Assembly (NCBI RefSeq): GCF_003334355.1
Contig: NZ_QOWP01000009.1
Origin: Escherichia coli
GTDB lineage: Bacteria; Pseudomonadota; Gammaproteobacteria; Enterobacterales; Enterobacteriaceae
Length of the DNA stretch: 64,000 bases
Direction: 5' to 3' (one strand)
Shown here in pieces: positions 3,549-4,723 of the stretch (positions are counted from its first letter, which is position 1; each line of letters opens with the position of its first letter). The notes beneath the pieces were generated by a model. It searched no databases, was not told the origin of the DNA, and saw only the letters and a list, made by a program, of their open reading frames with translations. Made by a program: the position numbers and the translations under genes.

Positions 3549-4723
3549 TTTGTGTGGTCCATAATATTTTTCATGGGAGGATAAATTGAGCCAGATGGAA
3601 TGGCCCAGGGAGTGATTTTGCTTTCACCTACTAATATTCCCTTAGCTATTCGTGATTGTATGTTAGTAAAAACTTTATGATATGGTTCGTTTTCGATTAA
3701 TACTAAATTTTCGAAATCATTAGTACCACCATCATCTAGAGATAGTTTATGGTGAACATTATAATTTAGAGGAACATTGCCCTTTCTCATTCTTAAAAGG
3801 TCTTCGGCGTTGAATCTTCCAGATGCTTCGGAGGTTTTTGCAAGTTTGATAAGAAAATTTTTTCTTACAGTTTTATTAAACTCCTTTCGTAAGTTAGCTA
3901 AGTCTTTTGAAGGTCTCTTAATGTATATTATTTCTATTATGTCTATACCATCAAGAAGTTTTTGTTGACCTCTAAGTTTGCCTAAGTAACTATTTATTTC
4001 TGTATATGTATCAACATTATAACGCTTTGTTAAAAGAATAGATGCTGTTGCTATCGCTATGCCCGCTGTTTTTTCATTTAGTATTTGATCATAGCCTTTT
4101 ATTGCATCTCCACCCAGTTTTTCCGCAGTATCTCTGAATCCTTCAATGTTCCCATTGTATACGCCACCAGCAGCAAGTAGCCTGCCAATAGCTTTGCTGT
4201 TTAACGTTTTGAAACGATTATTTGTTTGGTTTTTTGAATTTGGTAAAAACAAACGGTTATAATTTTCAGGGAGTGCCAAATAGCTGAACTCGGTATTTGC
4301 GATAAGATGTTGACAGAGGATAAATTCATAACTAATAGTTATTTTTTCTGTATCCAGTTGGTTTTCAATGATCTGGTGATGAATAGCCGATAAAAAAGCG
4401 CCTCTTAGTTGTATATAATAATACTTTTCCCATCTACCAAATCTATTTATTCGATAGAAGTCAAATCCCATAAATAATTGTTCATTATTGTTAATGGAAT
4501 TAATAAATAATGGAGTGCTTTTATCAATTAATTTACAAAATGTTATACCATGGAACTGTGAACCAAGCCCCGTATTATTAATATTATTTAAGAGTGAGAA
4601 TGTAAATGTTTCATCCTCATGCCCGCTCTGCCAACGATTACCTGTAGACTCAGAAGTCCCACAACCTGCGGAGATGCTTCCTTGTTGTTCTCCCGTTACT
4701 GTCAGGTAAACAATATTACTCAT
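3545..4723 (-). CDS. yhhZ: Hcp-domain protein with C-terminal HNH nuclease motif (Hcp-fused polymorphic toxin, 392 aa)
   Basis: ORF track 3545..4723. N-terminus MSNIVYLTVTGEQQGSISAGCGTSESTGNRWQ is Hcp1/TssD-like; C-terminus NVHHKLSLDDGGTNDFENLVLIENEPYH fits the HNH motif (HH...GG...N...H). AT-rich coding sequence. Confidence 0.8.
   Translation of the reverse strand: MSNIVYLTVTGEQQGSISAGCGTSESTGNRWQSGHEDETFTFSLLNNINNTGLGSQFHGITFCKLIDKSTPLFINSINNNEQLFMGFDFYRINRFGRWEKYYYIQLRGAFLSAIHHQIIENQLDTEKITISYEFILCQHLIANTEFSYLALPENYNRLFLPNSKNQTNNRFKTLNSKAIGRLLAAGGVYNGNIEGFRDTAEKLGGDAIKGYDQILNEKTAGIAIATASILLTKRYNVDTYTEINSYLGKLRGQQKLLDGIDIIEIIYIKRPSKDLANLRKEFNKTVRKNFLIKLAKTSEASGRFNAEDLLRMRKGNVPLNYNVHHKLSLDDGGTNDFENLVLIENEPYHKVFTNIQSRIAKGILVGESKITPWAIPSGSIYPPMKNIMDHTK

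Follow-up and report, generated by a model that had tools for sequence, protein, structure and literature searches.

The unassigned centre of Escherichia coli YhhZ is a composite that includes a conserved helical module in the pre-toxin position

The gene yhhZ of Escherichia coli encodes an Hcp protein that ends in an HNH nuclease motif, and we analyzed the part of the protein between these two ends (residues 146-321; window 3761-4288, minus strand). The window is a 64,000-nucleotide stretch of contig NZ_QOWP01000009.1 and covers the E. coli ggt–yhhY region, with the gene order ggt–yrhB–yrhD–yrhA–yhhZ–yhhY–yhhX. Positions 2200-5600 are 99.9% identical to strain HS, where yhhZ is annotated as tssD, and they have matches in each of the 5,426 complete genomes of E. 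coli. Only 3,758 of these carry 80% or more of the yrhB–yhhZ locus, which is therefore polymorphic within the species. YhhZ has been cited as an "evolved Hcp" whose HNH domain is degenerate (PMC2907695) and belongs to His-Me finger group 32 (PMC5714182). Its type, Hcp-ET1, is described in reviews as an antibacterial DNase of Shiga toxin-producing E. coli that depends on T6SS2, a type VI secretion system (T6SS) (PMC6730261, PMC6099711). YhhZ itself, both of its end domains and the class to which it belongs are already known; only the helical module described below is new.

Library searches assign the two ends of YhhZ. Pfam matched T6SS_HCP at residues 27-139 (E 4e-10), HNH weakly at 322-343 (E 0.013) and Col-Pyo_DNase below threshold at 284-341 (E 1.9), and returned no match for 146-283 even at E <= 10. 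In NCBIfam only TssD matched, at residues 1-147, where a TIGR03344 score of 115.2 bits against a cut-off of 58.9 places the N-terminal part in the TssD/Hcp1 family. A PDB sequence search with YhhZ found Hcp structures (Hcp3 and Hcp, matching the N-terminal part) and the HNH motif only. A first-pass annotation of this DNA had reported no recognizable domain between the Hcp-like part and the HNH motif, and Pfam and NCBIfam bear this out for residues 146-283. Across homologues, about 25 residues of the 146-321 stretch are invariant or nearly so.

With residues 146-392 as query, a search of 1.8 billion representative proteins gave matches that fell into separate classes. About 120 representatives, 141 to 1261 amino acids (aa) long and with unrelated N-termini, matched YhhZ 244-383 only, at their own C-terminus. 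Hcp-fused proteins matched 146-230 only and then continued into different C-termini. In a third class, YhhZ 173-385 was found behind a non-Hcp N-terminus annotated as PF26362 (DUF8093). This places the start of the toxin domain at about residue 240, with a separate conserved element at about 173-232. AlphaFold2 (AF2) models of full YhhZ and of residues 173-392, each built on an alignment of 63-66 sequences, both agree with the boundaries drawn from the match classes. Residues 146-321 are not one domain; they comprise a tail, a spacer, a helical module and the N-terminal half of the toxin domain (Table 1).

Table 1. Features of yhhZ and yrhA in the window
Feature	Residues	Window position	Strand	Basis or remark
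yhhZ open reading frame	392 aa	3545..4723	minus	Hcp-ET1 type
Hcp (TssD) beta-barrel carrier domain	1-145	4289..4723	minus	NCBIfam, Pfam, PDB, AF2
Hcp-specific C-terminal tail, FSYLALPENYNRLFLP	146-161	4241..4288	minus	Homologue comparison
Variable spacer, NSKNQTNNRFK	162-172	4208..4240	minus	Predicted disordered
Conserved, mostly helical module	173-232	4028..4207	minus	Alignment, scan, AF2
End of DNA homology to genes with other toxins, inside the module	~207-219	4068..4104	minus	blastn
N-terminal subdomain of the HNH toxin	237-320	3764..4015	minus	AF2, homology, Foldseek
Beta-beta-alpha-metal (HNH) catalytic core and final strand	321-385	3569..3763	minus	AF2
yrhA, presumed cognate immunity gene		3054..3548	minus	Start overlaps the yhhZ stop

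The module has the consensus …NSKxxGRLLAAGGxYNGNxEGF…LGGDA…G…, and the peptide AAGGVYNGNIEGFRDTAEKLGGDAIKGYDQILNEKTAGIAIATASILLTKRY, quoted in the first-pass annotation, corresponds to YhhZ residues 184-235. In an alignment of 18 diverse copies the invariant positions are N175, G180, R181, L182, L183, A184, A185, G186, G187 and Y189, followed by N192, F196, A200, L203, G204, G210 and S228. AF2 predicts a hinge at 228-235 and helices at 177-190, 193-203, 207-214 and 217-231, the helices with a predicted local distance difference test (pLDDT) score of 70-91 that drops to about 50-57 in the last one. This last helix contains an uncharged stretch of 14-18 residues, rich in Gly, Ala and Ser and flanked by charges; it keeps this character while its sequence shifts with the type of toxin. 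Among 72 copies of the module the mean identity is 65% for amino acids and 63% for nucleotides; where residues are conserved, the codon is the same in only 38%. The invariant Gly, Arg, Leu and Ala positions draw on every synonymous codon, including those at 199-210, outside the patterns used for scanning. Synonymous codons are thus saturated at invariant residues, indicating selection on the protein and not on the DNA. The module lies outside all Pfam and NCBIfam models, and we found no description of it or of DUF8093 in the searchable literature.

To see how widely the module is distributed, we scanned one genome per GTDB species using the module alignment with scan patterns. It is present in 75 loci from the Enterobacterales (Enterobacteriaceae, Erwiniaceae and Yersiniaceae), often several to a genome, with a few on contigs carrying off-lineage labels. 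The N-terminus is an Hcp in 12 loci and DUF8093-like in 54. The DUF8093-like N-termini form three subfamilies, two of which, N1a and N1b, are related (hhalign probability 98%). That these N-domains might be divergent Hcps was rejected at the sequence level (hhalign probability 0.1-0.2%). The DUF8093-type proteins are about 380 aa long (L002-L004, gene 6001-7146; 54 loci in L006-L079) and have an uncharacterised N-terminal domain that often ends in a GxKPxPT motif. Their module and toxin cassettes are those of the Hcp fusions. Clustering the ends of the extracted open reading frames (ORFs) gave 13 unrelated C-terminal clusters. Five of the 13 are named by Pfam: HNH, Colicin_D (a tRNase), Endonuclea_NS_2, Deam_C (a deaminase) and DUF6883. 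The other eight lack a Pfam assignment, one of them bearing an HExxH motif. All the identified toxins act on nucleic acids. Nothing but the module is shared by both types of carrier and at least 13 toxin families. One N1c-group toxin with the module and HNH is found together with its YrhA-like immunity gene (L081:8001-9581) in an integrative conjugative element of Pantoea dispersa, where the pair lies between transfer genes of the TraC/TraG type.

Other routes to related architectures were less informative. A word-index protein search returned short fragments and no architectures for the module profile (<=123 aa) and short fragments for the Hcp part (<=277 aa), the latter including no Hcp–DUF2235 (Hcp-ET2) fusions. 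A tblastn search of plasmids with the Hcp part found ordinary Hcps only.

The orthologous ggt–yhhY locus of Citrobacter locates the junction at which toxins are exchanged. By blastn, its flanks and the 5' part of its Hcp-toxin gene align with E. coli. Three Citrobacter genes with non-HNH toxins (L022, L039 and L051) match window 4723-4104 only, stopping at residue 207. Hcp-toxin genes elsewhere in the genome (L017, L025 and L026) match down to 4068-4074, residues 217-219. For an HNH-type gene (L023) the match runs on through yrhA to 3065. The homology to genes with other toxins stops inside the module, so the constant part ends there, before the hydrophobic last helix. Compared with window 3054-4723, the toxin cassette of the Citrobacter locus has been replaced in situ. 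The three Citrobacter Hcp–module genes with non-HNH toxins (gene ~3491-4700) are also accompanied by different immunity genes.

N-terminally truncated copies, whose start lies at the module or shortly ahead of it, adjoin full-length genes (L013:4004-4639, L045:5997-6728 and L011:2679-2903). The product L013_1 begins MLNSKAAGRLL, and L045_1, L011 and L016 likewise start at or just before the module. Such copies resemble the orphan toxin/immunity arrays of contact-dependent growth inhibition (CDI) and Rhs loci. One conserved element thus precedes 13 C-terminal clusters, each with a distinct downstream ORF, the breakpoint falls inside that element and truncated cassettes begin there, as in pre-toxin domains. 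We read the module as a pre-toxin junction domain that has no name yet, best described as a new family among the pre-toxin/junction domains of polymorphic toxins. In evolution it serves as the point of exchange of toxin/immunity cassettes.

Downstream of the module, AF2 folds residues 237-385 into one compact domain (pLDDT 92-98). A short helix is followed by a three-stranded sheet (245-268), a long helix (272-294), two short helices and then the beta-beta-alpha-metal core, with strands at 321-325 and 340-344 and a helix at 345-360. Homology with polymorphic toxins of unrelated N-termini starts at residue 242-247, and structural matches of the domain are labelled LXG, PAAR and DUF4280 proteins in the AlphaFold database (AFDB). 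In the N-terminal half Y267, R279, F282, F290, G315 and P318 are nearly invariant. In the core H324, H325, N335 and N339 are invariant in 66 of 66 aligned sequences and H349 in 65. By the alignment and the model, YhhZ thus carries the His-His…Asn…Asn…His beta-beta-alpha-metal motif of the His-Me finger (HNH) nucleases. The Pfam HNH match is weak for YhhZ (E 0.006-0.013), but 24 of 66 relatives match at E <= 0.001. Residue S328 (window 3740-3742) gives YhhZ the sequence HHKLSLDD as against HHKLPLDD, with Pro in 61 of 66 relatives; the catalytic residues are intact.

With a profile of the family, YhhZ ~284-345 aligned with residues 44-115 of the ColE7 DNase (E 0.005). The top PDB matches by Foldseek were the DNase domains of pyocins S2/AP41 and ColE7/E9, over 77-88 columns and with a target-normalised TM-score of 0.40-0.45. 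YhhZ is not a member of Col-Pyo_DNase (PF21431), where E values were 1.9 and 0.74 and only model positions 43-112 of the ~124-residue domain aligned. The YhhZ toxin is related to the colicin/pyocin DNases at the superfamily level and is a distinct His-Me finger toxin family. Its toxin domain is about 150 residues long (237-385), compared with 22 residues in the Pfam HNH match. Given homology in about 120 toxins and the partial fold match to colicin/pyocin DNases, residues 237-321 are the body of the nuclease: the scaffold of a single nuclease domain and not a second effector. This scaffold would presumably provide DNA-binding and immunity-binding surface for the beta-beta-alpha-metal motif.

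YrhA scores 125 bits with NCBIfam NF038335 (YrhA family; cut-off 55). In 25 loci an HNH-type toxin is followed by a YrhA-like ORF, and the gene downstream of one DUF8093-HNH toxin encodes a protein with 59% identity to YrhA. Each toxin cluster has its own small downstream ORF. No signal peptides were found in the putative downstream immunity ORFs of all 13 families, suggesting that the toxins are probably neutralised, and probably act, in the cytoplasm.

Upstream of the module, the AF2 model has a beta-barrel over YhhZ 4-146. The tail (146-161) is present in every Hcp-fused homologue whatever the toxin (P0011, P0016, P0143, P0167, P0198, P0232 and P0252). It is also found in Usp of UTI89, as NTEFDWLAFPAGYNSLFIP, and is absent from the DUF8093-type proteins. 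The spacer (162-172) differs in length and sequence between homologues, and pLDDT is below 50 at 152-163 and 165-172. Residues 146-172 form a flexible tether by which the C-terminal cargo would hang off the Hcp ring.

The yrhB–yhhZ genes form a low-GC islet (window 2250-4950), with yrhB, yrhD, yrhA and yhhZ at 30-35% GC and the flanking ggt and yhhY at about 50%. The low GC suggests horizontal acquisition. Downstream of yrhA are two small genes, yrhB (window 2320-2604) and yrhD (~2800-2955). We considered them as a decayed toxin–immunity cassette and rejected this, as they have no similarity to toxins or immunity proteins of the module-bearing family. On the other side of yhhZ, a strong hairpin (GCCCUUUUUC…GGGAAAAGGGU, window ~4927-4953, minus strand) directly follows the stop codon of yhhY, upstream of yhhZ, and may be the yhhY terminator. 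The RNA fold of the whole yhhZ upstream region was no better than that of shuffles (z = -0.56).

A comparison with Usp points to what the module might do. Usp of UTI89 (L082:14401-16182) shares with YhhZ the Hcp domain and the tail NTEF.WLAFP..YN.LFIP. After the tail it has a Pro-rich and hydrophobic stretch, then Pyocin_S (309-450; E 2e-39) and Col-Pyo_DNase, and the gene is followed by three immunity genes. Pyocin_S is an experimentally supported inner-membrane translocation (IMT) domain, which is needed for import of pyocin G to the cytoplasm and is common to nuclease bacteriocins and T6SS nucleases (PMC9040868). Because Usp has the same Hcp tail and then Pyocin_S in the same slot, we infer a role for the YhhZ module in toxin entry. 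The module may help a folded, cytoplasm-acting toxin finish its delivery. The likeliest step would be one in which the Gly/Ala-rich hydrophobic last helix engages or crosses the inner membrane of the target. This step would be analogous to those of the Pyocin_S IMT domain, the entry domains of CdiA-CT or the N-terminus of Tde1, and might involve transient membrane insertion.

Judged by its position and its association with cytoplasm-acting toxins, service in the step from periplasm to cytoplasm is possible rather than probable. A delivery or translocation module was among the options of the first-pass annotation; it is plausible for 173-232 (~60 residues), conserved in the pre-toxin slot, and does not hold for the whole stretch. 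Taking the architecture and the proposed translocation function of residues 146-321 together, we lean towards them as the best explanation. A bolder extension, that the module is a self-contained, previously unrecognised cytoplasm-entry device of the Enterobacterales, taking any folded toxin that targets nucleic acids through the inner membrane of the target from either an Hcp or a DUF8093 carrier, with the DUF8093 proteins as a new toxin class, secreted or Hcp-loaded, is put forward tentatively and is rather unlikely.

Several points weigh against a role in entry. Observed are the boundaries of the module, its conservation, its modular occurrence, the junction of toxin exchange and immunity proteins that are all cytoplasmic in character; any part in translocation or loading is extrapolated from them. 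The last helix (217-231), on which the proposed step would depend, is the least confident part of both AF2 models. Its hydrophobicity is modest: the maximum 19-residue Kyte-Doolittle mean in YhhZ is 1.18, and medians elsewhere in the family are 1.2-1.8 and mostly below 1.6. For a transmembrane anchor we required a hydrophobic stretch of at least about 19 residues with a mean of at least about 1.6, and the helix was rejected as such an anchor since the stretch is short and its hydrophobicity mostly below the threshold. The pattern [GAS]xxx[GAS]xxx[GAS] is not enriched, with 2.0 per module against 2.8 ± 2.0 in composition-matched shuffles. A Tde1-like glycine-zipper motif was accordingly rejected, the repeats not exceeding what composition predicts.

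The sampling and the gene neighbourhoods also count against it. Invariance of GRLLAAGG and NGN..GF is partly due to ascertainment by the scan patterns, and the comparison of modules included no periplasm-acting Hcp toxin (Hcp-ET2/Tle1). No recurrent T6SS genes flank the 75 module loci; housekeeping genes, tamB, ppa and glgP among them, lie next to the module genes. The DUF8093-type proteins lack linkage to T6SS genes, and their flanks do not identify an export route.

The main rival to a role in entry is that the module is a packing or loading adaptor inside the attacker cell with no part in the target, which we consider unlikely. The module always lies behind a carrier and a flexible spacer, as would an element that folds back into the Hcp lumen, and a four-helix unit of ~60 residues with a toxin of ~150 residues would have the size of the lumen. 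By electron cryomicroscopy of Hcp3–Tce1, a two-domain cargo spans two stacked rings, and the same work argues for one Hcp-ET per ring with five ordinary Hcps (PMC13323088). However, a covalent fusion to Hcp should need no conserved docking element, the Hcp paralogue Usp has no module, and the DUF8093 loci are unlinked to hcp or other T6SS genes.

Less likely still is that the module is a processing site at which a protease of the attacker or target, or self-cleavage, frees the nuclease from its carrier. Some 45 helical residues are conserved, far above what a cleavage site needs, and no protease-like motif or fold was found in YhhZ. The idea does have precedents, as pre-toxin domains have been proposed as processing sites (PMC3482391) and FtsH-dependent processing accompanies the import of nuclease bacteriocins (PMC9040868). 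In YhhZ the low-confidence hinge (228-236) adjoins invariant small residues.

The breakpoints of homology inside the module, and the truncated cassettes that begin there, could also be read as a homology handle for cassette recombination that works at the DNA level, the peptide being a passive linker. A module that is purely a recombination handle is unlikely, and we give this reading little credence: with 63% nucleotide identity, saturated synonymous sites and invariant amino acids, the module would be a poor substrate for recombination between distant lineages.

Similarly improbable is the first-pass option of a second effector, which would act independently, perhaps as a small toxin that permeabilises membranes. 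Each locus has one immunity gene, which co-varies with the C-terminal toxin and not with the module. The module is 60 residues long, and half of the "unassigned" region (237-321, ~85 residues) is the body of the single HNH nuclease domain. A Gly/Ala-rich hydrophobic helix would suit such a toxin, and Tde1 inhibits growth independently of its DNase activity through a Gly-rich N-terminus (PMC10240207).

That the region merely extends the Hcp fold, or is a linker with neither conservation nor structure, is scarcely credible: residues 146-172 (~27 residues; the tail and the variable spacer with pLDDT <50) do behave as the linker that the first-pass annotation had allowed for, but 173-321 are conserved, predicted to be folded and found without Hcp, which already contradicts this reading for the rest.

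How T6SS nucleases pass from the periplasm to the cytoplasm of the prey is an open question, with only the Pyocin_S IMT domain and the N-terminus of Tde1 so far implicated. The YhhZ module is compact, conserved, portable and present in most complete E. coli genomes, making it a convenient handle for the genetics of the entry step, and its domain boundaries are defined for truncation constructs. The analysis also ties the uncharacterised DUF8093 family to the biology of polymorphic toxins. Should the module turn out to be a mere spacer or junction, the result is a refined annotation of a known effector class.

The closest known system is that of the Hcp-ET proteins themselves, which Ma et al. 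in 2017 reportedly described as "evolved (specialised) Hcp" effectors. Like YhhZ, Hcp-ET1 joins an N-terminal Hcp to a C-terminal HNH DNase, and an immunity gene comes next. The accessible literature on Hcp-ET1 describes the two end domains only; in it we found no 173-232 module, no sharing with DUF8093 and no toxin extent of about 150 residues.

The best structural matches to YhhZ ~272-385 are the DNases of colicins E7/E9 and pyocins S2/AP41, Rhs2-CT (PDB 9t38) and Cas8-HNH. These nucleases share with YhhZ the His-Me finger core and the helices preceding it, at a sequence identity of 16-28%. Unlike the colicin/pyocin DNases, YhhZ has an extra N-terminal three-stranded sheet (245-268), and its immunity protein is of the YrhA type and not the Im type.

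Pyocin_S and the YhhZ module both lie behind the carrier and ahead of a nuclease that acts in the cytoplasm, and both occur with several delivery systems and toxin types. The IMT domain is a 15-kDa beta-sheet domain (PF06958), whereas the module has about 60 residues and is predicted to be all-helical. Membership of the module in Pyocin_S, with its L-shaped two-sheet beta fold, was rejected as Pfam gave no match at E <= 10; only the position is analogous.

In Tde1, an Agrobacterium T6SS DNase, a Gly-rich N-terminal segment is needed for translocation (PMC10240207). Like the module, it is a short segment rich in small residues beside a T6SS DNase that must cross the inner membrane. The Tde1 motif is N-terminal and binds the adaptor Tap1, while in the YhhZ module a GxxxG-type periodicity does not rise above the expectation from composition.

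The pre-toxin domains of polymorphic toxins described by Zhang et al. in 2012 include PT-VENN of CdiA, DUF637 and PT-HINT (PMC3482391). As with these domains, the VENN junction of CdiA and the Rhs tips, the YhhZ module is the last conserved element before the hypervariable toxin, the breakpoint lies inside it and truncated cassettes start there. It differs from them in belonging to another sequence family, in being confined to the Enterobacterales and in being carried by Hcp or DUF8093 proteins rather than by CdiA filaments or Rhs shells.

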